This document shows, one piece after another, positions 15,098-40,216 of a DNA stretch of 64,000 nucleotides (position 1 is its first letter; each line of letters opens with the position of its first letter). The notes under the pieces were generated by a model, which saw only the letters and a program-made list of their open reading frames with translations, made no database searches and was not told the DNA's origin. A program made the translations under genes and the position numbers. Source of the stretch: Bacteroidota bacterium (GTDB lineage: Bacteria > Bacteroidota > Bacteroidia > JABDFU01); contig JABDEY010000001.1 in the NCBI GenBank assembly GCA_013286805.1, positions 6,051 through 70,050 of the forward strand. The letters are read 5' to 3'.

Positions 15098-18000
15098 TCA
15101 CTTAACAATTATCAGTCGCTTGTTGATTCTGCCCTTGCTGCCTGTAACAGATATCGTATAAATGCCATCAGCCAGGTTGTTCCCATCAAGGGTTACACTC
15201 CCCGTAAAAAGAAATTGCTTATACATCAAATTACCGCGCACATCAAACACCTGCAGCAATTGCTGCTCGGCAGAAGAAGACGTCACTACAAAATTTCCAC
15301 CTGAAGGATTGGGGTACACAGATACTGAATAATTGTCTGACTCAGTAGCAATCCCCGTACAAATATTAATCGTTAAGACCATTGAACTGATGCCTTCGTT
15401 ACATGGGGCAATCCCGCTCACAGCATTTGTAGCAGTAAGCGTTAAGGTAACACTTCCATTGGCAATATCAGCTGATGAAGGAGTGTACGCCGCATTCGGC
15501 AATGCTGCATTATCAAAAACACCGGTTCCCGAACTTGTCCAGATAGAGCCAGTTGCTGAGCTGCCAACCACACCCGCTAATGTAAATGAAGTGCCTGCGC
15601 AAATGACGGCATTGGATCCTGCATTAGCAGCAATAACCGAACTGATGGTTACACCAAAGCTTGCAGCAGACGCCGAGCATCCTCCACCTGCAGCAATGTT
15701 ATTACTGATCGTATACGAAGCAGGAGTACTTCCTGCCAGGTCAATCTCCCCGGTAGACGTATTAACAAAAACCAAACCTGCAGGCAAAGCCGAAAAAACT
15801 CCGGCACTTGCCCCTGCTGTAAAATGTGGAAATGGATTTGCCTCCCCATCGCAATAAGCTGTGGAATAGGTGAACGCAGCATCAGGAGAAGTCGTTATGG
15901 TAACGCTCACTGTACTGCTGGCCGGGCAGGTCCCATCTGTTAAATAAGTTACGTTATATGTTGCAAGCGCGCTGCTGCCTAAAGTAATCTTTCCCGACGA
16001 CGCATTTAATGATAAACCAGCGGGAGAAGAAGTGAATAATCCCCCCGCAAGTCCGGAAATAACAGGACTTGGGTCCGATCCGGATTTACAGATAGTTGGA
16101 GAGGAATAACTGAAAGAAGGATTATCAGAAGGTATGATCGTAATTGCTATAGCAGCAGAGCTTACAGAAGTACAGCCATTACCATCTGTAACCAGAACAG
16201 AATCACGGCCGCCAACTGAAACAGAAATAGCAGAGGTAGTTGCTCCAGTACTCCACAAATAAGAACTTCCGGCACTGCAGGTAAGAGTCACTTTGCCACC
16301 GTTACAAAAAGAGGTCGGTCCGCCTGGAGTAATCGTAGCTGTTGGTAATGGGTTCACCGTTACATTTTGTGCTGCTGTGGCAGTATTTCCGCTACCATCC
16401 GTTACTGTCCATGTGACTACGGTTGTTCCTTCAGGGTAAGTACCGGAAGGATGATCATTACCAAAAGAAGCCACAGAGCAATTATCTGCAGTTACCGGAG
16501 TGCCCAATACCACCGTCTCCCCGACACAGACAAAAACATCTGCAGGGGCAGTAATGGTCGGATTAATGTGATCCTTTACAGTTACCGTTTGAGTTGCAGT
16601 CGCAGAGTTGCCGCTGCCATCCGTTGCCGTCCAGGTCACAGTGGTATTACCAAGGGGGAAAGCAGAAGGCGCATTATTTGTTAAACTTGCCACGGCACAA
16701 TTGTCAGCAGCGTTGGGAAATCCCAATAAAACTCCGATTACAGTACATCCTGTGGAAATATTTACATTCACATTTGCAGGGGCAGTAATAGTCGGAGCAA
16801 TATTATCAGTTACAGTCACCGTTTGATCTGCAGTGGCCGAATTTCCACTACCATCTATTACTGTCCAGGTAACCGTAGTATTTCCTAAAGGAAAGGCAGA
16901 GGGAGCATTATTAAATACAACGGCTACAGAGCAATTATCTGCTGTCACAGGTGTTCCCAATACAACTCCGGTTGCAGTGCATCCTGTATTGGTCGTCGCA
17001 TTTACAGTTGCAGGAGCCGCAATGGTTGGGTTTATATTATCCGTTACCTTAACCATTTGAGTTGCAGTTGCCGTATTCCCGCTGCCATCCGTAACGGTCC
17101 AGGTCACGGTGGTGTTTCCCAAAGGAAAGGCAGATGGCGCATCATTGATGACATTTGCAACAGAACAATTATCCGCAGTAACAGGAGTACCCAAAGAAAC
17201 ACCGGTTGCAGTACATCCTGTATTTGTAAATACACTCACTGTTGCTGGCGCGGTGATGGTCGGATTAACATTATCCGTTACGGTAACTATTTGATTAGCA
17301 GTTGCTGTATTGCCACCTCCGTCCGTTACAGTCCAGATAACTGTTGTGTTTCCAAAAGGGAAAGCAGACGGAGCATTATTCGTCACATTTGCCACAGAAC
17401 AATTATCAGCTGTTCCAGGGTTTCCCAATGAAACGCCGGTTGCAGTACATCCTGTATTTGTAAATGCATTTACAGTTGTAGGCGCAGTAATGGTCGGGTT
17501 AACATTATCAGTTACGGCAACTGTTTGAGTCGCGGTTGCTGTATTTCCGCTTCCGTCTGTTACTGTCCAGGTGACAGTTGTGTTGCCCAATGGATAAGTG
17601 CTTGATGCGTGATCATTTACCACACTTGCCACAGAACAATTATCAGCTGTCACAGGCGCTCCCAACGAAACACCGGTTGCAGTACATCCCGTATTTGTAA
17701 ATGCGTTCACAATGGCGGGTGCCGAGATAGTCGGATTAACATTATCTGTTACAGTAACTGTTTGAGTCGCAGTTGCAGTATTACCGCTCTCGTCTGTTAC
17801 CGTCCAGGTAACCGTTGTATTTCCCAAAGGAAAGGCAGAAAGAGCATTATTCGTCACACTTGCAACCGAACAATTATCTGCAGTAGCAGGAGTACCCAAA
17901 GAAACACCAGTTGCTGTACATCCTGTATTTGTAAATGCATTCACTGTTGACGGCGCAGTAATGGTCGGATTAACATTATCCGTTACGGTAACTGTTTGAT

Positions 18001-21000
18001 TGGCAGTTGCAGTATTACCGCTTCCGTCCGTTACAGTCCAGTGGACAGTAGTATTTCCCAAAGGAAAAGTTGTTGATGCATAATCATTGACTACACTTGC
18101 TACAGAACAATTATCTGCTGTCACAGGCATTCCCAAAGAAACACCAGTTGCCGTACATCCCGTATTCGTAGTAGCGAATACTGTTGCAGGTGCTGTAATG
18201 GTTGGATTGACATTGTCTGTAATAGTTACTGAGAATGAACATGTTGGTGCCCCGCAGGTATTGGTTGCTGTAAGAGTTACTATGGTCACACCCAAATTAA
18301 AAGCAGAACCTGTCCCGGTTCCGGTTCCACTACCTGTGGTGACGCCACTTAAACTATAGCTAATTGCCGGGGCAGGCGAACCTGTAACAGCAGGTGCTGA
18401 ATAATTCACAATTGCATTGCATGATCCGGCCGTTGTATTTGATATTTGGTCTGCAATGCAGGTAATAACCGGAAGTGTATTAACTGTAACTGCTATAGGC
18501 GCTGAGCTTGCAGAAGTACACCCATTAACATCCTTAATCGTCAGCGAATAGGAGCCTGTAGCAGAGGCTGTGATGGATGCCGTTGTTGGTCCGGTACTCC
18601 AGGAATAAGAATTACCGGCACTGGAAGTTAAAAGCACACCACCTCCCTGACAAAAAGTAGTAGATCCGTTGGGTGTAATAATGGGGGCACCCGGCAATGG
18701 ATTGACCATAATCACTACTGCTGCAGAACTTAAAGAGGTACAACCATTTGCATCAGTCACCTGAACAGAATCACGTCCGGCTGCAAAAATCGGAATACCC
18801 TGCTGATTCGGATCTCCATTACTCCATATATAAGAGCTGCCTGCACTACATATTAAATCCACAAATCCACCCTGGCAGAAGGTGGTAGGACCATCGGGCG
18901 TGATTGTAGGTGTAGCTGGCAGGGGGAGAATGGAAGTTGAAACAGAAGTTACAGGAGATGCGCATCCAAACGAATTGGTGATAACCAGTGAATCCCAACC
19001 GGCTGTTTTTACATAAATGGAAGGGCTTGTCGCTCCGGTAGTCCATGTATAAGTAGTTCCTGCGCTGGAAGTTAAAAGTACGCTATCACCCTGACAGAAT
19101 GTGGTCGAGCCGGTTGGTGTTATAGTGGGGGCTGCCGGTACCGGATTAACAGTTATGGTCATACTGCTTGAACAGGCGCCTGGTGTCACGCATCCACCCT
19201 CTCCTCTTGCATAATATGAGGTAGTGGAAGCAGGTGAAACAGAAATTGCAGTTCCGCTGCCAACACTTGTTGCTCCACAACTTCCGCTATACCATTGCCA
19301 TTTTGTTGCACTGTTTTGTACCCCTGTCACTATACTCAGTATAGTACTCTGTGCGCCGCAATTGGTGGAAGATGAAGTGGCAAGTGTCGGAATGCCCGGA
19401 TTTACGCAGGAAGGTACATATACCCACACTGCTCCTGCATTACTATTATCATCAGGGCCTCCTATTAAGGTAGTTGTTCCATCCGTTGAAATGGAAACGG
19501 AGGTCCCTTGTTCAGGAGCACCTACAGCACCAGTACCAATTAGTTGAGTTCCCTGCTGAGTCCATATTCCGCCAGACATGGTGAAAACCCATGCTGCCCC
19601 AATAAAACTATTATCATTAAATCCCCCTATAATTGCAGTACTTCCATCAGCTGAAATGGAAACAGAGGTCCCTTGCTTTGCAGAACCTGTTGCCCCAGTA
19701 CCAGTTAATTTACTCCCTTGCTGTGCCCATGCTCCCGCTGAGCGTGTATAAACCCACGCCGCTCCTGCACCACCATTGTCAGAATGCCCTCCAACAAGAG
19801 CCGTATTGCCATCCGATGAAAGAGCCACAGCGTAGCCCTGATCCGCTGAACCCACAGCCCCGGTACCTACTAATTTACTTCCCTGCTGGGTCCAGACTCC
19901 ACCTGAAAGGCTATACACCCAGGCAGCTCCTGCAAAACTATTATCCGCAAATCCCCCCGCAATTGCAGTAAACCCATCTGATGAAATAGCTACTGAATAC
20001 CCTTGTTCTGCAGCCCCTACAGCTCCTGACCCAACTAATTTACTTCCCTGCTGCGACCATGTTATGCCATTGCGGACAAAAACCCAGACTGCCCCCGCGC
20101 TGCTATTATCATTTAATCCTCCCACGATAGCCGTATTCCCATCGGCTGAAATGGAAACAGCCTGGCCTTGATTCGCTGTACCTATTGCACCTGTTCCAAC
20201 CAATCCAATCGCCTGCTGAGACCATGCGGTTCCTGATCTTGTGTAAATCCAGACTCCTGAATTGCTGCTGCCCACGATAGCAGTGTTCCCGTCAGCCGAA
20301 ATGGAAACTGACCATCCAAAAAAAGTTGAAAAGGTAACCCCTGTTCCGACCAGTTTACTTCCCTGTTGGCTCCAGACTAAACCTGATCGTACATAAATCC
20401 ATGCTGCACCTGTATTGGTATTATCAAAATATCCACCAACAATTGCAGTATTCCCATCTGATGAGATGGCAACAGAATAGCCCTTTTCTGCTGAGCCTAC
20501 ACCCCCCGTACCAACCAATTTGCTTCCCTGTTGCGCAACCGGATAAGGCGTAGCAGTAACTGAAAAATTACTGCCACTTAATGCATTGCCACCTGCAGTT
20601 GTAAGAGATAAATTGCCAGTTACCGCTCCTGGCATTACCAGGCACTCCAGTTTAGTTCCTGTATTTGATATCACAATAGCCGGTATTCCGCCGATAGTAA
20701 AAGAGGTGGGGCTTCCCAGATTGTAACCCATAACAGTCACCAACGTACCAGGCGCACCGCTGGAAGGACTGAAAGAATTAATTACAGGCGGGGCGATCGT
20801 ATAAACCCAGGCCGCTCCTGCATTGCTGTTATCAAATGGTCCTCCTGCGATCAGCGTGGTTCCGTCAGCTGAAATGGAAATAGCATTTCCCTGACCTGCT
20901 AACCCTGTTGCTCCTGTACCTACCAGGTTATATGCCGATTGTTGCTGGGTTTCCTGTTGGGTCCAAACGGAGCCAAAACGAGTGAATACCCATACTGCTC

Positions 21001-22315
21001 CTTCTCCACTATTATTAGCTGGTCCACCCAGAACAGCAGTATTTCCGTTCGATGAAATGGAAACGGACCAGCCTTGCTGAGAAGCTCCAACGTTAAATGT
21101 CCCCGCCAGTTTATTTCCCTGTTGAGACCATACCGTACCTGACCGGGTATAAACCCAGGCAGCTCCCGCACCTCCATCATTATAGCCACCCGAGATTGCA
21201 GTATTGCCATCAGATGAAATAGAAACGGAAAAACCCTGACGAGCAGCACCTGTTGCCCCCGTTCCCACCAGTTTATTTCCCTGCTGCGACCATACTGTTC
21301 CTGACCACGTATAAATCCAAACGGCTCCTACATCAATATTATCAGCATATCCCCCTGTTATAAGTGTATTCCCATCGGATGAAAGGGCAATAGCGTAACC
21401 TTGAAGTGCATTGCCAACAGCTCCTGTTCCCACCAATTTAGTACCCTGCTGAGACCACACTCCTGCTGTGCAGGTATAAACCCAAATTGCGCCCTGATTG
21501 GCATTGTCATAGCAACCACCTGCCACAGCTGTATTACCATCCGCTGAAATGGAAACAGATACCCCTTGCTGTGCTGCACCCGTAGCTCCCGTACCTGTTA
21601 ATTTGCTTCCTTGCTGGGTCCATACCCCTCCGGAACGGGTAAAAATCCAAACAGCTCCTGCGTTACTATTATCACCTGGGGCACCAATGATAGCTGTATT
21701 TCCATCTGCTGAAATGGAAACAGAAGCTCCCTGCTGTGCCGCTCCCACGGCTCCTGCTCCAACTAATTTAGTTCCCTGCTGCGACCAAGCGTTCCCGGAT
21801 CTGGTATAAATCCAGGCCGCGCCTGTATTACTATTGTCAGCATATCCTCCTAAGATTGCAGTGTTACCATCTGCCGAAATGGAAACAGAATAACCCTGGG
21901 ACGCAGAGCCCGTGGCACCGCTTCCAACCAATTTACTACCTTGTTGAATAGATGGATAAGGTGTTGTTATAACTGTAAAACTACTGACACTAATTGCAGT
22001 ACCGTTCGCCGTAGTAATGGATATGGACCCTGTTAAAGCAGAAGACATTACCACGCCCACCAATTGGCTGCCGGTATTTGATTCCACTATGGCTGTAGCT
22101 CCTCCAATTGTAAAAGCTGTCGGGCTTCCAAGGTTGGTACCTGATATAGTAACCACTGTACCTGGGGCCCCGCTTGAGGGATTGAACGAAGTTATAGTTG
22201 GAGTTTGGGCATGCAACGCATTAGGAAAAAAGGCAAATGCGGCAAGTACTAATACTATTAAAACCCCTGCCCTGTTTCCCCTTTGGAATCCAGATTGTTT
22301 TGTACATTTTTTCAT
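15098..22315 (-). CDS. Giant T9SS adhesin-like protein (~2405 aa): 2 x [IPT/TIG + 7-blade FG-GAP-like propeller] + Cys-rich module + Ig-like modules + 9 HYR domains + type-A CTD
   Basis: Track ORF 15098..22456. I prefer the ATG at 22315 (MKKCTKQSGFQRGNRAGVLIVLVLAAFAFFPNALHAQ, a signal peptide). IPT1 ~21965-22207 and propeller 1 ~20800-21965. IPT2 ~20545-20799 and propeller 2 ~19425-20545. Each propeller has 7 x 55-aa blades (QG[19 protein letters not shown]3-GA-W-[VI]-[YF]), including literal FG (FGWSVS) and GAP (IIGAPGDNS) motifs. Cys-rich module 19150-19425. TFCQG Ig-like modules ~18480-19150. HYR domains ~16352-18475 (NVNPTITAP...ADNCSVAS...[13 protein letters not shown]). Terminal VYPNPSGGNFVV...GIYTISV...RLIIVK is the T9SS type-A sorting domain. 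Confidence 0.9.
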   Translation of the reverse strand: MKKCTKQSGFQRGNRAGVLIVLVLAAFAFFPNALHAQTPTITSFNPSSGAPGTVVTISGTNLGSPTAFTIGGATAIVESNTGSQLVGVVMSSALTGSISITTANGTAISVSSFTVITTPYPSIQQGSKLVGSGATGSASQGYSVSISADGNTAILGGYADNSNTGAAWIYTRSGNAWSQQGTKLVGAGAVGAAQQGASVSISADGNTAIIGAPGDNSNAGAVWIFTRSGGVWTQQGSKLTGTGATGAAQQGVSVSISADGNTAVAGGCYDNANQGAIWVYTCTAGVWSQQGTKLVGTGAVGNALQGYAIALSSDGNTLITGGYADNIDVGAVWIYTWSGTVWSQQGNKLVGTGATGAARQGFSVSISSDGNTAISGGYNDGGAGAAWVYTRSGTVWSQQGNKLAGTFNVGASQQGWSVSISSNGNTAVLGGPANNSGEGAVWVFTRFGSVWTQQETQQQSAYNLVGTGATGLAGQGNAISISADGTTLIAGGPFDNSNAGAAWVYTIAPPVINSFSPSSGAPGTLVTVMGYNLGSPTSFTIGGIPAIVISNTGTKLECLVMPGAVTGNLSLTTAGGNALSGSNFSVTATPYPVAQQGSKLVGTGGVGSAEKGYSVAISSDGNTAIVGGYFDNTNTGAAWIYVRSGLVWSQQGSKLVGTGVTFSTFFGWSVSISADGNTAIVGSSNSGVWIYTRSGTAWSQQAIGLVGTGAIGTANQGQAVSISADGNTAIVGGLNDNSSAGAVWVFVRNGITWSQQGSKLVGSGAVGAAEQGYSVAISSDGFTAIAGGFADNSFAGAAWVYSLSGGVWTQQGSKLVGTGAVGSADQGYAVALSSDGNTALVGGHSDNGGAGAAWVYTRSAGAWAQQGSKLTGTGATGSAKQGTSVSISADGSTAIIGGFNDNSFIGAAWVFTMSGGIWTQQGTQLIGTGAVGAPEQGTSVSISTDGTTTLIGGPDDNSNAGAVWVYVPSCVNPGIPTLATSSSTNCGAQSTILSIVTGVQNSATKWQWYSGSCGATSVGSGTAISVSPASTTSYYARGEGGCVTPGACSSSMTITVNPVPAAPTITPTGSTTFCQGDSVLLTSSAGTTYTWTTGATSPSIYVKTAGWDSLVITNSFGCASPVTSVSTSILPLPATPTITPDGPTTFCQGGFVDLICSAGSSYIWSNGDPNQQGIPIFAAGRDSVQVTDANGCTSLSSAAVVIMVNPLPGAPIITPNGSTTFCQGGGVLLTSSAGNSYSWSTGPTTASITASATGSYSLTIKDVNGCTSASSAPIAVTVNTLPVITCIADQISNTTAGSCNAIVNYSAPAVTGSPAPAISYSLSGVTTGSGTGTGTGSAFNLGVTIVTLTATNTCGAPTCSFSVTITDNVNPTITAPATVFATTNTGCTATGVSLGMPVTADNCSVASVVNDYASTTFPLGNTTVHWTVTDGSGNTATANQTVTVTDNVNPTITAPSTVNAFTNTGCTATGVSLGTPATADNCSVASVTNNALSAFPLGNTTVTWTVTDESGNTATATQTVTVTDNVNPTISAPAIVNAFTNTGCTATGVSLGAPVTADNCSVASVVNDHASSTYPLGNTTVTWTVTDGSGNTATATQTVAVTDNVNPTITAPTTVNAFTNTGCTATGVSLGNPGTADNCSVANVTNNAPSAFPFGNTTVIWTVTDGGGNTATANQIVTVTDNVNPTITAPATVSVFTNTGCTATGVSLGTPVTADNCSVANVINDAPSAFPLGNTTVTWTVTDGSGNTATATQMVKVTDNINPTIAAPATVNATTNTGCTATGVVLGTPVTADNCSVAVVFNNAPSAFPLGNTTVTWTVIDGSGNSATADQTVTVTDNIAPTITAPANVNVNISTGCTVIGVLLGFPNAADNCAVASLTNNAPSAFPLGNTTVTWTATDGSGNSATATQTVTVKDHINPTITAPADVFVCVGETVVLGTPVTADNCSVASFGNDHPSGTYPEGTTVVTWTVTDGSGNTATAAQNVTVNPLPTATITPGGPTSFCNGGKVTLTCSAGSSYLWSTGATTSAISVSVGGRDSVLVTDGNGCTSVSSAAIAITIIPSDNPSFSYSSPTICKSGSDPSPVISGLAGGLFTSSPAGLSLNASSGKITLGSSALATYNVTYLTDGTCPASSTVSVTITTSPDAAFTYSTAYCDGEANPFPHFTAGASAGVFSALPAGLVFVNTSTGEIDLAGSTPASYTISNNIAAGGGCSASAASFGVTISSVIAANAGSNAVICAGTSFTLAGVVGSSATGSIWTSSGTGVFDNAALPNAAYTPSSADIANGSVTLTLTATNAVSGIAPCNEGISSMVLTINICTGIATESDNYSVSVYPNPSGGNFVVTSSSAEQQLLQVFDVRGNLMYKQFLFTGSVTLDGNNLADGIYTISVTGSKGRINKRLIIVK
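16352..18225. repeat. Intragenic tandem DNA array: ~8 HYR-domain units of 234-243 bp
   Basis: The landmark CGG[AG]TTAACATTATC recurs at 17261, 17495, 17732 and 17966 (234-237 nt spacing). The protein units are near-identical (NVNPTITAP-x-TVNAFTNTGCTATGVSLG-x-P-x-TADNCSVA...[27 protein letters not shown]). Confidence 0.85.
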
Positions 22316-22362
22316 CGAATCGAATTTAAATGGAGGACAAAATGGAAAATAAAATTTCAAGA

Positions 22363-22392
22363 CAAATTTATGCGATTTATCGGCAAAGTCAA
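22363..22392 (-). promoter_or_regulatory. Putative promoter of the 2405-aa adhesin gene (TTGACT - 16 nt - TAAATTTG)
   Basis: The minus strand reads aatgaTTGACTttgccgataaatcgcaTAAATTTG. TAAATTTG (complement of 22363-22370) matches the Bacteroidetes -7 consensus TAnnTTTG exactly. It lies ~48 nt upstream of the ATG at 22315. Confidence 0.35.
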
Positions 22393-22485
22393 TCATTGAA
22401 CCGACAATTAAAACGGTATCGAACCATAGAGCAGACTTAGGCCAGTTCTTAGCCAACCTGCATAAAAATTAACCAAATAGATTAA

Positions 22486-23514
22486 CTACCCCCCAATCCG
22501 GATCATACTCCGGTTCTCAATATTATTCGCATCTTCATCTGTTGTTTTTCCTGTGCTTAGAAACCCGCTTTTGGCGGGTTTCTCAAAATCTTTCCTTCCC
22601 CCCAGTTCCTTTTTCTTGCCCAGAACACAATCCATAATCAATTGCTCAATAATCTCTCCCCTTCTCCATGGCCCTAGCAAATCCACTTCCCCTTGAGAGA
22701 ACAAGCAATTCTTCATCTTCCCGTCCGCGGTCAACCTTAAGCGGTTGCAACCACCACAAAAGGGCTCAGTCACTGTCGTAATAAAAGCAAAGGTCCCCAC
22801 ATGCCCCTTCACCTTATATTTCTTCGCCGTATCAGAAGGTGCATCCGTTAATTTTTCCAACGCATTCCCGGCAGCAATCAAGGCTAGCATTTCGGCATAA
22901 GAAAACACCTTACTACGTTCCCATGCATTCCCCGCAAAAGGCATAAACTCAATAAAACGCACCTCTAACGGAAAGTCTTTTGTCCAGGCAATAAAATCCA
23001 ATAGGACGTGCTCATTCACGCCCCTCACCACGACCATGTTTAACCTCACCTTAAAATCATTCGCAAGCAGCAATTGAATATTCTCCACTATTTTATTAAA
23101 CTCTCCCCGCTGAGTAATCGCCAGAAACTCTTCCGCATTTAGTGTATCCAGACTTACATTCACTGAACGAATTCCTGTACGCTTAAAAACTCCGACAAAT
23201 TTATGCACCAACACACCATTGGTAGAAACCGCCAGCTCAACAGGCAAATCAGCCAAGCCCTCCATTATCCGGGCGGCATCAAGCCTCACCAATGGTTCAC
23301 CACCCGTCAGGCGTATTTTCTTCACCCCCAGATTCACAAACACACCCGCAATTCCTAAAATCTCATCCACCTGCATAAGTTTCGCAGAAGCAGTAGTCAT
23401 CACTTTTTCATCCGGCATACAATACCTGCAACGCAGATTACAGGCATCCGTCAGCGAAATGCGCAAATAATCATGTTTGCGTCCAAATGTATCGTATAGT
23501 CGATCGGGAAGCAT
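22486..23514 (-). CDS. moaA: GTP 3',8-cyclase MoaA (radical SAM)
   Basis: Track ORF 342 aa. Radical-SAM motif CNLRCRYC, second-cluster region FCGGCNRLRLTADG, and the conserved terminal Gly-Gly (..IRIGG). There is an extra ~25-aa insertion before the tail. Confidence 0.92.
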   Translation of the reverse strand: MLPDRLYDTFGRKHDYLRISLTDACNLRCRYCMPDEKVMTTASAKLMQVDEILGIAGVFVNLGVKKIRLTGGEPLVRLDAARIMEGLADLPVELAVSTNGVLVHKFVGVFKRTGIRSVNVSLDTLNAEEFLAITQRGEFNKIVENIQLLLANDFKVRLNMVVVRGVNEHVLLDFIAWTKDFPLEVRFIEFMPFAGNAWERSKVFSYAEMLALIAAGNALEKLTDAPSDTAKKYKVKGHVGTFAFITTVTEPFCGGCNRLRLTADGKMKNCLFSQGEVDLLGPWRRGEIIEQLIMDCVLGKKKELGGRKDFEKPAKSGFLSTGKTTDEDANNIENRSMIRIGG

Positions 23515-23649
23515 CCTTTCAGAGAATTTAATAAATGTGAATATAATTATAAATTCGGTGTTTTTGTTTATAGCCTTATTTGCGGCTCACGCCGGCCCGC
23601 CCATTTAGGAACCGTATTAAACCCTGCTAAAAAACGAGTATCTTTAAAT

Positions 23650-24744
23650 ATGATTGGTTACCGGTTTTCCAAATACAACGCACCTTTACAAACCCCTTTT
23701 GAACAACTGTTTGATATTTTCAAGCAGCTGATTACTTATACCAGCGGGGATGTGGATGAGGCGATCAATTGGCTGACTGAACTGGACAAGGAATATAAAC
23801 TCACGACTCCTGAATATAGTATCGAAGATTTCATTCAGGAGATGAAGGACAAGGGTTACCTGAGAGAAGAAGTAGAGAGTTCTGGCGGAATGAAGATCAC
23901 CAAAAAAACAGAACAAGCCATCCGGCAACAGGCGCTCGACAAAGTGTTCGGTAAACTGAAGAAGGGCCGCAAAGGCAATCACTCCACAAAATTTACCGGA
24001 ACAGGAGAAGAGAACAGTGTTGATTCCAGGCCTTTCCGTTTCGGAGATTCACTCGACCAGATTTCCATGCTGGAGTCCATGAAAAATGCACAGATCAATA
24101 ATGGTATTGGGGATTTCAGGATCACAGAAAACGATCTGGAGGTGAAAGAAACAGAACACAAGTCGCAAACCTCCACGGTTCTTATGATCGACATTTCGCA
24201 TTCCATGATCCTTTATGGAGAGGACAGGATTACCCCAGCCAAGAACGTGGCGATGGCGCTGGCAGAACTTATCAAGCGCAAGTACCCAAAGGACACACTT
24301 GATATAATTGTTTTTGGCGACGATGCCTGGAAGATAGAAGTGAAGGATCTGCCTTTCCTCCAGGTAGGCCCCTATCATACAAATACTGTTGCAGGATTGG
24401 AACTTGCTATGGACTTGCTGAGACGAAGAAAAAATGCCAACAAACAGATTTTCATGATCACGGATGGTAAACCAACCTGCCTGAAAGAACATGGAAGCTA
24501 TTATAAAAACAGCTTCGGGCTGGATGCGAAAATTATCAATAAGTGCCTGAATCTTGCCAGAAGTTGCAGGCGCCTGAAGATTCCAATCACCACTTTTATG
24601 GTGGCCAGCGACCCCTACCTTCAGGAATTTGTACGGGATTTTACAGAAGCCAATGCAGGTAAGGCTTTTTACACTTCCTTGCAGGGACTTGGAGAATTTA
24701 TTTTTGAAGATTTTGAACGAAATAAAAAGAGAAAAATAAAATGA
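23650..24744 (+). CDS. von Willebrand factor A domain protein (CoxE-like architecture)
   Basis: Track ORF 364 aa. The C-terminal vWA has a MIDAS motif DISHS (VLMIDISHSM) and a downstream FMITDGKPT. The long helical N-terminal region resembles CoxE-type vWA proteins. The stop overlaps the next start (ATGA at 24741-24744). Confidence 0.8.
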   Translation: MIGYRFSKYNAPLQTPFEQLFDIFKQLITYTSGDVDEAINWLTELDKEYKLTTPEYSIEDFIQEMKDKGYLREEVESSGGMKITKKTEQAIRQQALDKVFGKLKKGRKGNHSTKFTGTGEENSVDSRPFRFGDSLDQISMLESMKNAQINNGIGDFRITENDLEVKETEHKSQTSTVLMIDISHSMILYGEDRITPAKNVAMALAELIKRKYPKDTLDIIVFGDDAWKIEVKDLPFLQVGPYHTNTVAGLELAMDLLRRRKNANKQIFMITDGKPTCLKEHGSYYKNSFGLDAKIINKCLNLARSCRRLKIPITTFMVASDPYLQEFVRDFTEANAGKAFYTSLQGLGEFIFEDFERNKKRKIK

Positions 24745-26213
24745 GCAGGGCAAAGACATTAGGTGAACTTAAAAAGTCGGGTTATAAAAGTAAATCCATC
24801 AAGGATGAACTGAGGGACAACCTGATTGAAAAAATTAAAAAAAAGGAAACAATTTTCAAGGGTATTATTGGATTCGAAGATACCGTCATCCCCGAAATTG
24901 AAAGAGCTTTGTTGTCAAGGCACAATATGAATCTGCTTGGCCTCAGAGGGCAGGCCAAGACAAGAATTGCCCGACAACTGATTGAATTCCTGGATGAGTA
25001 TATACCTGTTGTAGAAGGATCTGAACTGAATGACGATCCCTTGAATCCTGTTTCAGATTTTGCAAAAAGAGAAATTGAAAGACTTTCTGATAGCACTCCC
25101 ATTACCTGGCTGCACCGCTCTGACCGTTATGTGGAAAAACTGGCAACCCCGGATGTTTCCATCGCCGACCTGATTGGAGATGTGGATCCGATCAAAGCTG
25201 CCAATCTGAAACTGAGTTATGCGGACGAACGGGTGATACATTACGGTATTATTCCCCGCAGTAACCGCTGCATTTTTGTGATCAACGAATTGCCGGATCT
25301 GCAGCCAAGGATACAGGTGGCCTTGTTTAATATTTTGCAGGAAGGAGATATTCAGATCAGAGGATTTAAACTCCGGATTCTCCTGGATATGGAATTTGTT
25401 TTTACCGCAAATCCAGAGGATTATACCAACAGAGGAAGCATAGTTACACCTTTGAAAGACCGGATAGGGAGTCAGATATTGACCCATTACCCTAAAAGCA
25501 TAGCACTGTCTAAAAAAATCACCCTGCAGGAAGCAAATATCAATCAGCAGCAAAGGGACCAGGTTGAGGTGACGGACCTTATAGCAACGTTAATCGAACA
25601 GGTAGCATTCGAGGCAAGGGAAAGTGAATACGTTGATTCCAAAAGTGGCGTTTCCGCCCGGCTGACCATCTCAGCTTACGAGAATTTGGTGAGTACCGCT
25701 GAACGCCGTATGCTGCTGAATGGTGAAAAGAAAACCACCGCCAGAATCTCCGACCTGAACGGCATCATCCCGGCAGTAAATGGTAAGATTGAGCTGGTAT
25801 ATGAAGGAGAGAATGAAGGGGCCGGAATGGTTGCAAAGATTTTACTTGGAAAAGCCATACGCAATGAATTTCTAAAGTATTTTCCCGATCCGGGTAAGTT
25901 AAAGAAGAAAAAAGAGGCAAGCCCTTACCAGGTGATTGTTGACTGGTTTGCCGAAGGACATGTGGTGGACCATCTTATGCTGGAGGATGAAAAGACCTAC
26001 GCAAAGGGTCTTGAAGCAATCCCGGGATTATCAGCTCTGGTTGAAAAGTTTATGCCCGCTCAGAAACGGAACGAAAAACTGGCAGGTATGGAGTTTGTGC
26101 TTTTCGCCATGGCAGAACATTCCCTGATTGGAAAATCTGACCTGATCAGCGGAGTGCAGTTTAAAGACTTGATGGGAACGATGCTTTCTGATAAGTTTAC
26201 CGGTAGTGATTAA
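24741..26213 (+). CDS. ChlI/BchI-like AAA+ ATPase with atypical Walker A (GLRGQAKT) and Walker B (VINE)
   Basis: Track ORF 490 aa. By-eye block alignment to Mg-chelatase subunit I: GIIGFEDTVIPEIERALL, LLGLRGQAKTRIARQL, PVVEGSELNDDP, ATPDVSIADLIGDVD, CIFVINELPDLQPRIQVALFNILQEG, FVFTANPEDY, PLKDRIG. Translationally coupled to the vWA gene. Confidence 0.75.
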   Translation: MSRAKTLGELKKSGYKSKSIKDELRDNLIEKIKKKETIFKGIIGFEDTVIPEIERALLSRHNMNLLGLRGQAKTRIARQLIEFLDEYIPVVEGSELNDDPLNPVSDFAKREIERLSDSTPITWLHRSDRYVEKLATPDVSIADLIGDVDPIKAANLKLSYADERVIHYGIIPRSNRCIFVINELPDLQPRIQVALFNILQEGDIQIRGFKLRILLDMEFVFTANPEDYTNRGSIVTPLKDRIGSQILTHYPKSIALSKKITLQEANINQQQRDQVEVTDLIATLIEQVAFEARESEYVDSKSGVSARLTISAYENLVSTAERRMLLNGEKKTTARISDLNGIIPAVNGKIELVYEGENEGAGMVAKILLGKAIRNEFLKYFPDPGKLKKKKEASPYQVIVDWFAEGHVVDHLMLEDEKTYAKGLEAIPGLSALVEKFMPAQKRNEKLAGMEFVLFAMAEHSLIGKSDLISGVQFKDLMGTMLSDKFTGSD

Positions 26214-26970
26214 CAGTAAATTCCACCCCATAAGATTGAATCAAACAGCCCTCATTTTACTCCTCCTATTCCTTGTCGCCTTCTTCTATTCCACAGTAGG
26301 CCATGGAGGAGCAAGTGGCTATATAGCAGTCCTAACACTAATCGGCATCAGCCCCCTGCTAATAAAACCCTCTGCTTTACTTTTAAATATCTTCGTAGCC
26401 TCCATAGCCTTTTTCCACTACTACCGAGGCGGACACTTTCGCTGGAAACTATTTTATCCATTTGCCCTCTTATCTATTCCCATGGCCTGGCTTGGCACTT
26501 TTGTAGCATTGGATCCCATCTGGTACAAGCGAATTTTGGGAATATGTCTGATATTCGCTGTACTTCGAATTGCAGGACTATTCAACAGAAAAGAAATCTC
26601 AACCACAACTCCGGTGCCAATATTAGCAGGTCTCCTAATTGGCGCAGCATTGGGTTGCATAAGCGGAATGATTGGCATAGGAGGAGGAATTATTTTAAGT
26701 CCGATCATTTTGCTTTTCCGGTGGGGTAACCTCAAAGAAACAGCAGCTGTATCCGCATTATTTATACTCGTCAATTCCATTTCAGGTATGGCCGGAATGT
26801 GGAAACAGGAAATAGTCTGGCCAACACACATTTTAGTTTGGCTTGGTGCAGCTATTATAGGAGGCTTTGTTGGATCCTGGTGGGGAAGCAGGAAAGCTCA
26901 GAACAATACCCTGAAAAACATACTCGCATCTGCATTACTTCTTGCAGCCCTGAAACTTATTTTTGCCTGA
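26206..26970 (+). CDS. TauE/SafE (DUF81) family anion permease
   Basis: Track ORF 254 aa. Polytopic membrane protein with FFYSTVGHGGASGYIAVL and GMIGIGGGIILSPIILL glycine-rich helices typical of TauE/SafE. The GTG start at 26206 overlaps the ATPase stop. An alternative TTG start at 26236 is possible. Confidence 0.75.
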   Translation: MINSKFHPIRLNQTALILLLLFLVAFFYSTVGHGGASGYIAVLTLIGISPLLIKPSALLLNIFVASIAFFHYYRGGHFRWKLFYPFALLSIPMAWLGTFVALDPIWYKRILGICLIFAVLRIAGLFNRKEISTTTPVPILAGLLIGAALGCISGMIGIGGGIILSPIILLFRWGNLKETAAVSALFILVNSISGMAGMWKQEIVWPTHILVWLGAAIIGGFVGSWWGSRKAQNNTLKNILASALLLAALKLIFA

Positions 26971-27622: not shown

Positions 27623-28840
27623 ATGATTACAGTAGAACAAGCCAAATCAATTCTCCTCCAAAATATCCCTGTTCTGACAGAAAAGGTAGAGGTAAAAATT
27701 GCAGAAGCACTTGGATACAGGCTGGCAGAAGATATTTATGCAACGCTCAATCTTCCTCCATTTGATCAGAGTAATGTAGATGGCTATGCTATAAGATTTG
27801 CCTCGGGCCAGCAAATCCCAGCAAGCAAGCAGCAATTTCTTGCCTACAAAGTCATTGCTGAAATAAAAGCCGGTGATTCAACAAACCTGAAACTCGAAGC
27901 AGGAGAAGCGGCAAGAATATTCACAGGAGCAATGGTCCCGGAAGCCAGTGATGCCATCATTATGCAAGAACATATCACCCGCAACGGAAACCTAATCACC
28001 AGTAACGAACTTCTTCCCAAAGCAGGGGAACAAATACGTAAGGAAGGAGCTCAAATCAAAGAGGGAGAACTGGCTCTTGACAAAGGCACTTTACTCAATC
28101 CATCCGTTATTGGCTTTTTAGCAGCACTGAGCTTACAAAAAGTTACTGTTTTCAAAAAACCATCCGTTTCTCTTATTATTACTGGAAACGAGTTTCAGGA
28201 GAGCAACACAACCAATTTAGCACCTGGTAAAATCTACGAATCCAATTCTGCCACACTTCATTCCGCGCTAATCTCAATGGGCCTAACCCTAAACAGCATC
28301 CATTTTGTAAAAGACGACAAAAAAGCACTGGAGCAAACTATCAATGATGCCTTACCCGGCGCCGACCTGCTTCTTATATCCGGAGGAATCTCTGTAGGCG
28401 AATATGATTTTGTAAAAGAAGCATTAATGGATAATGGCATAACCACCCTGTTTCATAAAATCGCTCAAAAACCTGGCAAACCCCTGTACTTTGGAAAAAA
28501 TAAAACCACATTCGTTTTTGGCTTACCAGGCAACCCGGCATCCGCACTTACTTGTTTTTACCAATATGTTTACCCTGCATTAAGGAAAATGCAAGGCCAT
28601 TCAACCCTGTTTTTGAAAACCCTGCAACTTCAAGCTCTAAAAGATATTTCAAAAAAAACAGGTCTGGCCCACTTCTTAAAAGCACAAATAAAAACAGATG
28701 GCGTGCTTCCCTTGCAAGGGCAGGAATCATTTATCATGAAATCTTTTGCAGAAGCCGGAGCATTCCTATATTTACCAAAGGAAAAAGAAAGTGTTCATGC
28801 AGGCGAAATGGTAGAAGTGCATTTATTGCCGGAGAGTTGA
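27623..28840 (+). CDS. moeA: Molybdopterin molybdenumtransferase MoeA
   Basis: Track ORF 405 aa with the blocks PPFDQSNVDGYAI, FTGAMVPEASDAIIMQE, LLISGGISVGEYDFVKEAL, GLPGNPASAL. Confidence 0.92.
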   Translation: MITVEQAKSILLQNIPVLTEKVEVKIAEALGYRLAEDIYATLNLPPFDQSNVDGYAIRFASGQQIPASKQQFLAYKVIAEIKAGDSTNLKLEAGEAARIFTGAMVPEASDAIIMQEHITRNGNLITSNELLPKAGEQIRKEGAQIKEGELALDKGTLLNPSVIGFLAALSLQKVTVFKKPSVSLIITGNEFQESNTTNLAPGKIYESNSATLHSALISMGLTLNSIHFVKDDKKALEQTINDALPGADLLLISGGISVGEYDFVKEALMDNGITTLFHKIAQKPGKPLYFGKNKTTFVFGLPGNPASALTCFYQYVYPALRKMQGHSTLFLKTLQLQALKDISKKTGLAHFLKAQIKTDGVLPLQGQESFIMKSFAEAGAFLYLPKEKESVHAGEMVEVHLLPES

Positions 28841-28900: not shown

Positions 28901-29155
28901 ATGATCGAACTAACAGTTTTGTTTTTCGGAGAACTTGCTGAATTAGCAGCAACGAAAGAAACTACCCTTTCGAATATAAAAGACACAAGCGCATTAAACG
29001 ATACAAGCACATTAGTCGATTACATACATGAAAATTACCCTCGCTTAAGAAACAAAACATTCAACCTGGCCTTGAACCGGGAAATAATCACAGAAAAACG
29101 ATTGGTTAAAAACGGAGACGAAATAGCCTTACTCCCCCCCTACGCAGGAGGATAA
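28901..29155 (+). CDS. moaD: Molybdopterin synthase sulfur-carrier subunit MoaD
   Basis: Track ORF 84 aa. Ubiquitin-like MoaD/ThiS pattern (LFFGELAE...GDEIALLPPYAGG) ending in Gly-Gly. Confidence 0.88.
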   Translation: MIELTVLFFGELAELAATKETTLSNIKDTSALNDTSTLVDYIHENYPRLRNKTFNLALNREIITEKRLVKNGDEIALLPPYAGG

Positions 29156-29172: not shown

Positions 29173-29658
29173 ATGGAAAACGATCAGCTTAAAACCCAAC
29201 ATTTAAAACCCAACAAGGTTTTAAAAAAATTCCTCCAACATGGTCCAATCTCCCCTCAATTCATAGCCGACTCCATTTCCAAACACAGCAGCAAAACAAA
29301 CATTGGTGCGCATACAATTTTTCTTGGGCAAGTCCGGAAAGATAAAATAGAAACCAACGAAGTCCAGGCTATAGAATATTCCGCCTACGAAGAAATGGCA
29401 GAACAGGAAATCCACAAGCTCCGGGAAGAAGCCATCAGCAAATACCAGCTTAGTTGCCTCCATATCCATCACAGCCTCGGCAACGTGAATGCAGGAGAAA
29501 TATCCCTTTTCGTATTTGTCTCAGCTCCACACCGTACAAACGTATTCACAGCTTGTTCTGACGTAGTGGAACAAATCAAAAATAAAGTCCCCATCTGGGG
29601 CAAAGAAATTCTTGCCAACGGGACCCATATCTGGAAAACAAATAAAACAAATGGTTGA
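29173..29658 (+). CDS. moaE: Molybdopterin synthase catalytic subunit MoaE
   Basis: Track ORF 161 aa with the blocks [55 protein letters not shown]. Confidence 0.9.
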
Positions 29659-33745: not shown

Positions 33746-36700
33746 TTATCTCGCTATCACCAGACGCATATTCGTTCTTCCTCCACTGCCACTGATACAT
33801 ACATCATACATACCATCCGCAACAACTCCTGCATCTATCACTGACCTGCCCGGCACAATATACTGACTAAGCACCAATTTTCCGGTTACATCAAACAACT
33901 GAAGCAATTGTTTCTCAGCAGCGGAAGACTCAACGACAAACATTCCTCCGTTTGGATTCGGGTAAACTACCACCTTGTAATTGCTTCCCACAGGATTAAT
34001 ACCTGTACAGATATTTACGACTACAACAGCTGCAACGGAGCTTGCGGAAGTACAGCCATTTCCATCCGTAACTTCAACCGAATCCCGCCCGGAAACAGAA
34101 ACCGTAATAGCCTGTGTTACATCTCCCGTACTCCACAAATAAGAAGAACCGGAGCTGGAAGTCAATAGTACATCTCCACCCTGACAGAAAGTAGTCGGGC
34201 CACCGGGGGTAATCGTAGCAGTCGGCAAAGCGTTGACGGTTACCTGTTGCGTAGCAGTTGCTGTATTGCCACTCCCATCCGTCACAGTCCAGATTACAGG
34301 AGTCGCACCAACAGGATAAGTGCCGGACAAATGGTTATTCGTAACGGAAGCAACCGAACAATTATCTGAGGTTACCGGAGTACCCAAGCTAATAGATGTA
34401 CCTGAACAAACCACCACATCAGCTGGCGCAGTAATACTTGGATTAATATTATCCGAAACTGTCACAGTAAATGAACAATTAACTGCTCCACAGGAATTGC
34501 TTGCCGAAAGCGTTACAGTAGTAACTCCTAAATTAAAAATTGAACCGCTCCCATCTCCGCCTCCCGCTCCGGTAGTTACACCGCTGAAAATATAGCTCAA
34601 AGTTGGGACCGGCGCCCCGCCAAAAGCAGATGCACCATAGGTAACAACAGCAGAACACAATCCAGCAGACGTATTACCGGTCTGATTCCCAATACAGGCA
34701 ATGGTCGGGGCATTTACTGTTATAGTCCCGGAAGCGCTGACCTGAGGGCTACAAGACCCTCCTTTAGATGTAACCGTATACGTATATATTCCCCCAACTG
34801 TCGGAGTACCGCTGATCGTAAATGTCCCGGAGTTATATACACCGATTACCCCTGGAGGTAAACCAGTAACACCTGCACCGGTGGCAGTTCCGCCAACAGA
34901 ATAAATAACCGGATCAATTGCGCTGTTAAAGCAAACGGTCTGACCTGTTGTTCCAGGGTCAGATGACAAACTGAGTACATTAAAAAAGTTGCCATTGGTC
35001 TTATAAATACTCGCCTGTTGCGTAAAGGGATAAGCCCCCGTCCACCCGGTACCTGCATCATAAAATGCAAAACAATAATGACTCAGTGTATCCAATTGAG
35101 CCCAGGTAGCACCATCATCCGAACTATAGGAAGAAATTTTACCTGTTCCGGAAGTGCTCCCAGTTAAATAAAATCCGGGTCTGGAAGCAGATTTCTTTAC
35201 ATAAATAAAACTTTCACCATCAGAAGTAGCGGCCCAGGATCCGGCCGACGTAAACGTATTCCAGGTCAAACCGCCATCCGTAGTTCTCATAATGTTACCC
35301 GATCCTGCCCCAACTACAATACCATTTAAGGAATCCCTGAAGGCGATTGTAATAACATCAACAGAAGAGGCGAAAGGTGCAGAAACAGTCCAGGTCAATC
35401 CCTTATCAGCAGTTTTCAATACCCTGCCCTCCGTAGTACCGCACCAGACAGTATTGTTAAAAACACAATCAACACCTGTTAAACCCGTTTCCCCCCCAAG
35501 CGGAGCAGGAATATTTGCAGTAGGTACTACAGTCCAGCTATTTCCCGAATTTGTACTGGTATATATTTCAAAACTCCCGCTAACCGGATCACCCAGGCAA
35601 AAACCGGTTTTCCCATCATAGAAATGTACAACATCCGGAAAAGAAGTCGAAGACTTATAAATGGTATTATCCGGAACAGACCAGGTTAATCCTCCGTCAA
35701 ACGTCCTGAAAATATCCCCTCCGGCTGCACTCGTTAAAAACATACAAGCCCAGGCCGTGTCCTTATTAACAGCAGACAAATTCGAATAATTATACCCGGA
35801 AGAACCCGTAACAGTACCATTGGTCCAGGTCGTCCCGCCATTCGTTGTATTCGTAAATTCATTAATATTTGTAGTGGCCCATACAACAGTCGGACTGATC
35901 ACCAATAGCTGATAAATATATTTGTCTATTCCTGTGATATTGGAATTCTGTAAAATCCAGGGCGCCGGAAGCTGAACATAAGGCAATGTATCAACAGTCA
36001 GAATACCGTTAATGGTTCCCTGAGAAGCACATCCTCCACCGGTAGAAGTGACCGTATAATTAAATACACCGCTCACCGAAGGCGTTCCGCTGATGGTAAA
36101 GACACCGGCATTATACACACCGCTAACACCCAAAGGCAACCCTGTTACAGTCGCTCCGCTGGCAGGAACTCCGATTGAATAGGCAATACCCGAAATAGCA
36201 GTATGGGTACATACATTTTGATTGTCCGTTCCGGTTGCAGAGGAAAGACTGACAGAGGGCACCGCATTTACAGTAATGGTAATACTTGCGCAAACACCAG
36301 GCGTTACGCAGCCTCCTTCTCCTCTGGCATAGTAAGTAGTAGTCACCGCAGGAGAAACACTAATTGAAGTTCCGCTCCCAACACTCGTTCCACCGCAACT
36401 ACCGCTATACCATTGCCAGTTGGTAGCGCTGTTCAGTATTCCCGAGACAACATTAAGCGTAGTGCTTTGCGCTCCGCAATTGACCGAGGAAGAAGTGCTC
36501 AGAACAGGAGTAGTGGGAACTGTACAGGCAATGAATACCCACGCAGCACCGGCATTCGTATTATCAATATCTCCGCCCAAGATGGCATTGTTTCCATCCG
36601 TTGAAAGAGAAACAGACCAGCCCTGTCTTGCAGAACCTACAGCCCCTGTACCAACGAGATTTGTCCCCTCCTGGTTCCAGACACCGGCTGAAAAATTATA

Positions 36701-39700: not shown

Positions 39701-40216
39701 CGCATCACTGTTAAACCAGCCTTCACCCGTACCCACATAAAAATTCAAGGTAGCGTTCGGATCATATGCAATGCAGGTAACAGCAATGTTCGCCCAGAAA
39801 TCATTCACATTCGTCCAGGCAGGAGAAGCAACAGTAATGTCAGGCGCCTGCCATAAGCCCCCATCCACACCACCAGCCCATATCTTTTTATGCGTCACAT
39901 CATTCGGATCGAACATAATAGCCCGGGTTCTCCCTCCCACATTACTTGGGCCCCGTTCAACCCAGGTAGCAGTTGACAACAAACTGGGGTTATTATTCTT
40001 TTGCCTCCTTTGATGCACCGCCATAGAACGGGCAGCCTTCAATCGTTCGTAGGGAACATATCCCAAAGACGGATCCAGCGTTCTTCGAATATCCTGTTCC
40101 AGAGCAAGATCAGGGCGATCAGGCTTTATTGCATCTTCGTCTTCATCTGCCTTCTGGGCATGTAATAAATTAGCAGCAAGAGCTGCAACGATAAGCAACG
40201 TAATAATTTTATTCAT
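33746..40216 (-). CDS. Giant T9SS surface protein (2156 aa): Asp-box propeller region + IPT/TIG + 7-blade FG-GAP-like propeller + Cys-rich module + second Asp-box propeller + HYR + Ig-like + type-A CTD
   Basis: Signal peptide [22 protein letters not shown]-terminal ~760 aa (37930-40216) with Asp-boxes ([32 protein letters not shown]). IPT ~37675-37930. Seven 55-aa FG-GAP-like blades ~36535-37675. Cys-rich module 36270-36530. Second Asp-box region ~34985-35990 ([31 protein letters not shown]). HYR region ~34200-34680. [15 protein letters not shown]...RLVIAR. Collinear with the 15098-22315 protein in several modules. Confidence 0.9.

Follow-up and report, generated by a model that had tools for sequence, protein, structure and literature searches.

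The window analysed in this study is a stretch of 64,000 nucleotides from a Bacteroidota bacterium (assembly GCA_013286805.1, contig JABDEY010000001.1, positions 6,051 to 70,050 of the forward strand). Its molybdenum cofactor (Moco) locus contains three consecutive same-strand genes, which encode a von Willebrand factor type A (vWA) protein with a metal ion-dependent adhesion site (MIDAS), a ChlI-like AAA+ ATPase and a TauE/SafE permease (Table 1). In an earlier note, made from the sequence alone, these genes were proposed to be a trio that matures a molybdoenzyme. The analyses reported here make it probable instead that the vWA-ATPase pair is an orphan, recently placed in the Moco locus without a functional link to it, and that the TauE permease is native there and Moco-related.

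Organization of the locus

The moaA gene is the left boundary of the ancestral Moco locus and is divergent from the rest of the cluster; the spacer that follows it is presumed to be a divergent promoter region. The gene order previously described for the locus (moaA, a gap, the three genes, moeA-moaD-moaE-moaCB) was confirmed, except that a PAP2-like gene on the opposite strand, located before moeA, had been omitted.

Table 1. Features of the Moco locus in the window, with positions, coding strands and supporting matches.
Feature	Position	Strand	Basis or remark
moaA (GTP 3',8-cyclase)	22486-23514	-	TIGR02666 306.9 bits vs cutoff 284; Pfam Radical_SAM and Mob_synth_C
moaA/vWA spacer	23515-23649		135 nt, sequence read directly
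vWA/MIDAS protein	23650-24744	+	364 aa; Pfam VWA_2 E=1.6e-9
MIDAS DxSxS motif D181-I-S-H-S185	24190-24204	+	within vWA gene; alignment
ChlI-like AAA+ ATPase, Rv0958 type	24741-26213	+	490 aa; weak Pfam AAA_5 only
Variant Walker A G67-L-R-G-Q-A72-K73-T74 (GLRGQAKT)	24939-24962	+	within ATPase gene
Variant Walker B C-I-F-V-I-N182-E183 (NE, not DE)	25272-25289	+	within ATPase gene
TauE/SafE (TSUP) permease	ORF 26206-26970; likely start 26236	+	PF01925 111 bits vs cutoff 32.6, E=9.7e-32
PAP2-like membrane protein	26957-27622/27640	-	Pfam PAP2_C 27.1 bits, right at cutoff
moeA	27623-28840	+	Pfam and NCBIfam matches
moaD	28901-29155	+	Pfam and NCBIfam matches
moaE	29173-29658	+	Pfam and NCBIfam matches
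Fused moaC/moaB	29612/29651-30607	+	Pfam and NCBIfam matches

Direct reading of the sequence confirmed the junction of the vWA and ATPase genes as an ATGA overlap (24741-24744) and placed the ATPase stop codon TAA at 26211-26213, overlapped by a GTG at 26206. This GTG had been taken as the TauE start, a reading that orthologue alignment does not favour. The nearest TauE orthologues begin with MNEQ or MNEL, aligned to LNQT of the window protein, so that the TTG at 26236 (244 aa, 22 nt past the ATPase stop) is the likelier start. The ATPase and TauE genes are tightly packed with either start.

Genomic context of the vWA-ATPase pair

A linkage census was carried out on 80 genome loci from Bacteroidota and Ignavibacteria, which were anchored on the ATPase, extended by flanks of 10 kb and searched for each of the nine proteins encoded at the window locus. 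TauE, PAP2, moaA, moeA, moaD, moaE and moaCB lay within 10 kb of the ATPase in none of the 80 loci. A neighbourhood census of this kind had been named beforehand in the earlier note as the check on its proposal, and the pair proved to be essentially never linked to Moco genes. The vWA gene was located immediately upstream of the ATPase gene, on the same strand, in 64 of the 73 loci with enough upstream DNA. The other nine (L019, L031, L035, L048, L053, L054, L069, L074 and L082), from Saprospiraceae, Haliscomenobacter, Bernardetiaceae and some Chitinophagales and Flavobacteriales, had no vWA gene within 10 kb even at E<1; their partner is unlinked, replaced or lost. Clustering of all flanking open reading frames (ORFs) in 83 loci detected no third conserved gene around the pair, the next cluster being MurB-like and present in 11 loci.

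Contigs of five relatives, with ATPases 76-81% and 54% identical to that of the window, carried neighbours unrelated to Moco. Beside the 76-81%-identical ones were genes for LpxR and topoisomerase, isoleucyl-tRNA synthetase (IleRS), Nramp and OprB, or a type III polyketide synthase and coproporphyrinogen oxidase, and the closest relatives (80-81% identical) had neither TauE nor Moco genes alongside. Three distant relatives likewise had no Moco locus beside the pair, a weak ThiS-family ORF adjoining one of them (L102) being the sole hint. Gene order is reversed in the distant relatives, where the ATPase is followed by a vWA partner of 350-687 aa, and the long partners consist of Mb0984_helical, Rv0959_3rd and VWA_2 domains. 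The window and distant partners are homologous over ~300 residues (E=4e-37 and 1e-47). For the actinobacterial-type relative, identity to the window proteins was 42% for the ATPase and 28% for the partner, the latter over 309 residues of a 650-aa protein (E=4e-37).

Matches to the ATPase family filled at least 8000 clusters when sequences were grouped at 90% identity; grouping at 50% gave 3466 clusters with E<=1e-3 and 593 with E<1e-30. Identity across Bacteroidota classes and Ignavibacteria was 60-81% for the ATPase and 61-87% for the vWA protein. The two genes make up an ancient module that stands on its own, within a family that is large, evolves slowly and is uncharacterised. As in the Rv0958/Rv0959 type, the ATPase has the motifs G[LE]RGQ[AG]K[TS] and NE[LI]PDL and adjoins an Rv0959_3rd/VWA_2 partner, a link drawn from Pfam names and from the actinobacterial-type relatives, whose taxonomy was in turn inferred from the same domains. 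The window pair thus adds a member to a family that is known but has remained uncharacterised. In the databases the ATPase is labelled "magnesium chelatase" and the vWA protein "Ca-activated chloride channel family", and both labels are unsupported for the pair. Literature searches on Rv0958, Rv0959, MSMEG_5512 and mmar_4541 returned incidental mentions, in which a function was not found; what has been reported for genes of this type is one candidate from a nucleic-acid pull-down and one transposon hit, nothing more. The latter came from a B12-resistance screen, where a transposon inserted 49 bp ahead of the Rv0958 orthologue of M. marinum turned up once (PMC11237697).

Domain structure and conserved motifs

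A helix bundle forms the N-terminal part of the ATPase, followed by an AAA+ core that has helix-2 and pre-sensor-1 hairpins, then a lid and, at the C-terminus, an extension of ~140 aa. In Pfam the ATPase matched AAA_5 at 26.8 bits, together with a sub-threshold Sigma54_activat, and gave no match to Mg_chelatase (PF01078) or to the MoxR domain AAA_3 (PF07726) at E<=0.01. Its C-terminal 151 aa had no Pfam match even at E<=10, and a Pfam scan of the isolated N-terminal 50 aa returned nothing significant. The sole NCBIfam match, to TIGR02031 (BchD-ChlD), scored 26.4 bits, the cutoff being 499.55. When used as a single sequence to search solved structures, the ATPase retrieved BchI at E=0.23 and LonB at E=0.19; a profile of 18 diverse family members, searched against the PDB, retrieved ChlI 8osf at E=5e-12 (residues 66-275), BchI/ChlI at 1e-8 and archaeal LonB at 3e-8. 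The profile alignment to 8osf reproduced the block-by-block likeness to ChlI/BchI that had previously been drawn by eye, pairing LLGLRGQAKT with IMGDRGTGKS at Walker A, FaiNELpDL with LYVDEVNLL at Walker B (N182 being at the position of the ChlI/BchI Walker B Asp), ANPEDY with GNPEE at sensor 1 and LKDRig with LLDRFG at the Arg finger. An AlphaFold2 (AF2) model of the ATPase reached a predicted local distance difference test score (pLDDT) of 86.7. Its Foldseek neighbours were MoxR, LonB, MCM, BchI, NorQ, CbbQ and ComM, all at 12-18% identity, with the best template modelling (TM) scores for BchI. Because of these neighbours and of the profile match, which is best for ChlI, the ATPase is placed in the helix-2-insert/pre-sensor-1-hairpin AAA+ clade, nearest to ChlI yet outside it.

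The canonical patterns GxxGxGK[ST] and hhhhDE are not found in the ATPase, which has GLRGQAKT and CIFVINE at these sites, and the Ala in Walker A and the NE in Walker B proved to be real and family-wide. Among 120 close relatives, QAKT occurred in all and NE in 119. In a survey of 150 representatives of the 50%-identity clusters, Walker A read QAK[TS] in 70 and QGK[TS] in 15, and Walker B was NE in 123 of 126. Residues K73, E183, sensor-1 N224 and R241 are invariant, and R307 is almost so. The ATPase has thus retained its P-loop Lys, catalytic Glu, sensor-1 Asn and Arg finger. Judged from these alignments, the seemingly "degenerate" Walker motifs are conserved hallmarks of the whole family and not signs of decay. 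Nucleotide binding and hydrolysis are accordingly predicted to be kept in a modified form, and with Asn substituting for the Mg-coordinating Asp, the ATPase cycle may be slow or switch-like. This invariant Walker B Asn offers a clear biochemical handle on the family.

In the vWA protein, a helical region at the N-terminus is combined with an Rv0959_3rd domain (PF27098, precomputed) and a vWA domain. The full MIDAS described before stands up to comparison: D181, S183, S185, T244/T246 and T271-D272-G273 are invariant in an alignment of 15 homologues and are kept in the distant L103 partner as DCSHSMILYGEDR, by which the protein is taken to carry a complete motif. The linker and vWA region matched the ChlD-like TIGR02442 at 6e-8, with 31 bits against a cutoff of 779, and the protein resembles the C-terminal half of ChlD, that is, a linker plus a MIDAS vWA domain. 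Among the profile searches suggested in the earlier note, TauE gave a clear match, while VWA_CoxE and Mg_chelatase gave none at E<=0.01; for the vWA protein, Pfam returned VWA_2 and a sub-threshold VWA only. A profile of the vWA protein had no sequence match in the PDB, and a Pfam scan of its isolated N-terminal 172 aa found nothing significant. Relatives 74-87% identical to it are spread across many Bacteroidota. The AF2 model, built on a shallow alignment of sequences at 74-87% identity, had a pLDDT of just 54 and was for this reason kept out of the fold search.

Linkage of the TauE permease to the Moco locus

The Pfam match of TauE is full length (profile positions 2-237 of 237). Orthologues were collected by a metagenome scan with the TauE protein, which gave a small sample from metagenomes only; in this set, all 12 loci (43-73% identity) lay inside Moco clusters, in two operon architectures. 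In the first (L086-L089, TauE 60-73% identical), moaA on the opposite strand faces TauE-moeA-moaD-moaE-moaCB with nothing between, TauE abutting moeA and the moaA-TauE gap being 78-129 nt; the order of moeA, moaD, moaE and moaCB after TauE in L087 and L088 is the same as in the window. In the second, seen in the marine contigs L091-L097, the order is moeA-TauE-mobA-like-TP_methylase-moaD-moeB(ThiF+rhodanese)-moaE-moaCB-moaA. The PAP2-like gene is called in L001, but no homologue of it was found in L086-L097, and none of the relatives has it at this position. TauE is an ancestral, native member of the Bacteroidota Moco locus.

One of these loci, L087, has directly upstream of moaA a urate oxidase gene whose product is 76% identical to that of the window (11487-12881), so that it serves as a proxy for the ancestral arrangement, and it lacks the pair. 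By comparison with L087, genes are inserted in the window at three places. A 7TMR-DISM/SpoIIE gene and the gene of a 2452-aa surface protein separate urate oxidase from moaA, the vWA-ATPase pair follows the moaA spacer and precedes the TauE start codon, and the PAP2-like gene parts TauE from moeA. Besides urate oxidase, the region 4310-9900 of L087 has further purine-catabolism genes (allantoicase, OHCU decarboxylase and deaminases), and the position of the Moco locus after these genes suggests that Moco here serves xanthine dehydrogenase.

The suggestion of a molybdate-like oxyanion as TauE substrate gains support from this linkage. The most likely role of TauE is membrane transport of an anion connected with Moco, and uptake of molybdate is our leading guess, which is based on gene linkage and on the precedent of a plant TauE-family member, the rice protein OsDISMO1, which transports Mo (PMC12227400). 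A known Mo transporter is lacking in 278 Mo-using bacteria (PMC6147048). About 8% of the bacteria that use Mo have no ModABC, WtpABC or TupABC (PMC6147048), and the Moco-locus TauE is a candidate for their uptake route. That Bacteroidota import molybdate through this subfamily, as the transporter so far missing from them, is put forward tentatively, as a possibility that we hold to be somewhat less probable than its contrary. In the literature searched, no description of a linkage of TauE/TSUP to Bacteroidota Moco operons was found.

Nucleotide composition of the pair and its neighbours

GC skew at third codon positions (GC3 skew) was calculated on the plus strand for the genes of the window. 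The 30 other genes, on both coding strands, had a mean of -0.35 (standard deviation 0.18), with -0.54 for moaA, -0.40 for TauE, -0.44 for PAP2 and -0.29 for moeA, and a non-negative value was found in 1 of the 30. For the pair, the skew was +0.01 (vWA) and +0.10 (ATPase), and the break falls at the ATPase/TauE junction. In 67 other loci, the skew of the pair was regressed on the local median (slope 0.58, r=0.51, p=9e-6); since it tracks the local skew in these loci, the pair is not intrinsically skew-neutral. For the window, the regression predicts -0.23, with a residual z of 3.0. The strand-specific bias of the window is far stronger than that of these 67 Bacteroidota loci, most of whose medians are below 0.15 in magnitude. 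The pair is apparently a recent arrival, by translocation or inversion or by horizontal replacement, and the skew evidence for this is moderate because the regression is extrapolated.

Elsewhere in the window (52697-54511 on the minus strand and 54603-58383 on the plus strand), a GH18 chitinase gene with a type IX secretion system (T9SS) sorting tail showed an opposite GC3 skew of +0.17, and the transglutaminase-like/DUF3857 gene and 643-aa ORF beside it had a low GC content (0.36-0.38) and weak skew. These are possibly further recently acquired segments.

Other features of the window

An Rfam search of the window gave zero RNA families, the Moco riboswitch included. The Bacteroidota -7 promoter motif TAnnTTTG was found 51 times in the whole window, against 61 matches expected by chance, with none in the relevant spacers. 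The moaA/vWA spacer had no alignable similarity to the moaA/TauE spacers or the vWA upstream regions of relatives, so that the insertion borders could not be mapped at the nucleotide level. The starts of the PAP2-like gene and moeA are essentially back-to-back (27622/27623), which leaves no intergenic room for a promoter of either. Three giant ORFs were observed, at 2408-10555 (plus strand, 2715 aa), 15098-22456 (minus strand, 2452 aa) and 33746-40216 (minus strand, 2156 aa); the 2452-aa and 2156-aa products are repeat-rich cell-surface proteins with FG-GAP/Ig-like repeats, and the 2156-aa one has a T9SS sorting tail. An HMA domain fused to a MauE-type membrane domain is encoded at 10609-11427 (minus strand), adjoining the urate oxidase gene.

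Origin and possible function of the pair

We propose that a relocation, apparently a recent one, brought the pair to its present site between the divergent promoter region at moaA and the TauE start codon; because of this position, vWA, ATPase and TauE are now probably co-transcribed. By analogy with ChlI-ChlD, CobS-CobT and NorQ-NorD, the ATPase would form a hexameric ring on which the vWA protein would dock, the MIDAS site would take hold of an acidic residue in a client protein whose gene lies elsewhere, and ATP turnover would remodel this client or load metal into it. On that analogy, the pair is most likely a ChlI/ChlD-like motor-adaptor acting on a client encoded elsewhere. Its extreme conservation points to a conserved core target, and nothing ties the client to molybdenum. 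The present arrangement is a lineage-specific accident unless shown otherwise.

Several points weigh against this account. The pair is packed tightly against TauE (the ATGA overlap within it, and no more than 22 nt before TauE), and it is presumably expressed from the promoter region of the Moco locus, so that local functional co-option is possible. One marine contig (L097, TARA) encodes a 65%-identical ATPase homologue at 18828-20273 on the minus strand, ~2.7 kb past moaA and convergent to the Moco cluster; given that ~100 loci were examined, this proximity is probably due to chance. At the same position, the sibling contig L095 carries an Eco57I-type methylase gene. The skew regression is extrapolated from genomes of weaker skew and does not separate inversion or translocation from horizontal replacement. 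For TauE, the biology of the TSUP family would fit sulfite or some other sulfur compound just as well; one member, CysZ of C. glutamicum, has been characterised as a sulfate transporter (PMC5840216).

The proposal that vWA, ATPase and TauE form one module, for molybdoenzyme maturation or for metal insertion into Moco after the fashion of CoxD/CoxE, draws on the tight same-strand packing of three genes inside a Moco locus. AAA+/vWA pairs are commonly metalloenzyme maturases, CoxD/CoxE maturing the Mo-Cu centre of CO dehydrogenase, and structures of NorQ-NorD and CbbQ are among the Foldseek matches; L097 is one more contig with the ATPase near moaA, at 2.7 kb. However, neither Moco nor TauE linkage was seen in the 80 loci, the closest relatives occur in unrelated contexts, a third conserved gene is absent, and orthologous Moco loci exist without the pair, one of them with shared flanking synteny. 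The GC3 skew of the pair is foreign to the locus and marks it as a newcomer, the VWA_CoxE and MoxR-type (AAA_3) signatures are missing from the Pfam matches, and no molybdoenzyme or known Mo transporter was found among the scanned window ORFs, all 180 aa or longer. We find no support for a role of the pair in maturing Moco or a molybdoenzyme, and we consider the single-module proposal very unlikely. Equally little credence is given to an adaptive relocation, in which the Moco operon would have acquired the motor at its head, in transcriptional fusion with a TSUP molybdate importer, and the motor would aid Mo delivery or the maturation of a molybdoenzyme such as xanthine dehydrogenase. If instead the pair were the cargo of a mobile or anti-phage defence element, its variable position among genomes and its foreign composition would be explained, but this is hardly credible: none of the three proteins matched PADLOC models at E<=0.01, inspection of the flanking ORFs revealed neither an integrase or transposase nor a repeat (no dedicated repeat search was made), and identity of 60-87% across classes, with one copy at each locus, is what housekeeping genes passed on vertically usually show.

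Two further explanations were weighed, and both are judged unlikely, if less strongly so. The pair might be the I/D motor of a class I tetrapyrrole chelatase or dechelatase with a CobN/ChlH/HmuS-like large subunit encoded elsewhere, as its closest solved relatives (ChlI/BchI), the TIGR02442 match of its partner (6e-8), the database name of the ATPase and the single transposon near the M. marinum orthologue in the B12-resistance screen (PMC11237697) would have it. This is improbable in view of scores far below the family cutoffs (26 vs 499 bits for TIGR02031 and 31 vs 779 for TIGR02442, with no match to the Mg_chelatase Pfam), of the lack of a recurrent large CobN/ChlH-like gene near the pair in 83 loci, of hosts that are non-phototrophs, and of a separate ChlD-like gene that adjoins the cob genes in M. 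tuberculosis. The absence of tetrapyrrole pathway genes nearby, already remarked on in the earlier note, was borne out among the window ORFs scanned. HmuS, the Bacteroidota homologue of CobN, is reported to depend for its activity on the membrane fraction and NADH and not on ChlI/D-type partners (PMC12583661); with no linkage seen either, the idea of the pair as an HmuS/CobN partner was set aside. Alternatively, the pair could be native to its position, with its odd skew due to codon selection on a highly conserved gene, and the arrangement an old lineage-specific operon fusion. In other genomes the skew of the pair follows the local skew at just ~58% strength, and the window skew is stronger than that of any comparison locus, which makes the prediction an extrapolation. 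Yet the observed skew is opposite in sign to that predicted, at a residual of 3.0, only one of the 30 other genes has a non-negative skew, and the arrangement is shared with no database relative, and a native origin therefore appears doubtful.

A recently placed orphan pair beside a native TauE thus remains the reading that we favour. It removes a tempting but false lead, as the closeness of genes in a single genome does not count as evidence for a function in Moco. What is left of interest is an orphan ChlI/ChlD-like family that is routinely mis-annotated, and the Moco-locus TauE as a candidate molybdate transporter.

Comparison with known systems

The ChlI/ChlD motors are the closest in form. 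The AAA+ core of the window ATPase aligns blockwise with ChlI/BchI over Walker A, Walker B, sensor 1 and the Arg finger, and the window partner combines a linker with a MIDAS vWA domain as does the C-terminal half of ChlD. CobSTN is a documented example of a motor-adaptor-client architecture (bioRxiv 10.64898/2026.07.21.739949). The window pair differs in having no ChlH/CobN gene nearby and a partner without the AAA+ half of ChlD, and its ATPase has an extra C-terminal region of ~140 aa, an NE Walker B and a QAK/QGK Walker A; the pair is also far below the family cutoffs and its hosts are non-phototrophs. With Rv0958/Rv0959, and with MSMEG_5512 of M. smegmatis, it shares the Pfam domains Rv0959_3rd and VWA_2 in the partner and the adjoining ATPase; Rv0958/Rv0959 are annotated as a "possible magnesium chelatase" and a conserved hypothetical protein. 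The actinobacterial-type relatives differ in their reversed gene order and in a partner ~300 aa longer, with an extra N-terminal helical domain.

The pairs NorQ-NorD, CbbQ-CbbO, CoxD-CoxE and RavA-ViaA are similar in that a helix-2-insert AAA+ protein is paired with a MIDAS vWA protein, and MoxR-class structures (2r44, 9qh4 and 6l1q) are among the Foldseek neighbours of the ATPase. In contrast to that class, the window pair has no AAA_3 or VWA_CoxE match and no adjacent client gene such as nor, cbb or cox, and the ATPase profile is nearer to ChlI and LonB. For the permease, the full-length Pfam match places the window TauE in the TSUP family, which moves sulfur oxyanions and whose member OsDISMO1 moves Mo; what sets the window subfamily apart is that it is embedded in the Moco biosynthesis operons of Bacteroidota.

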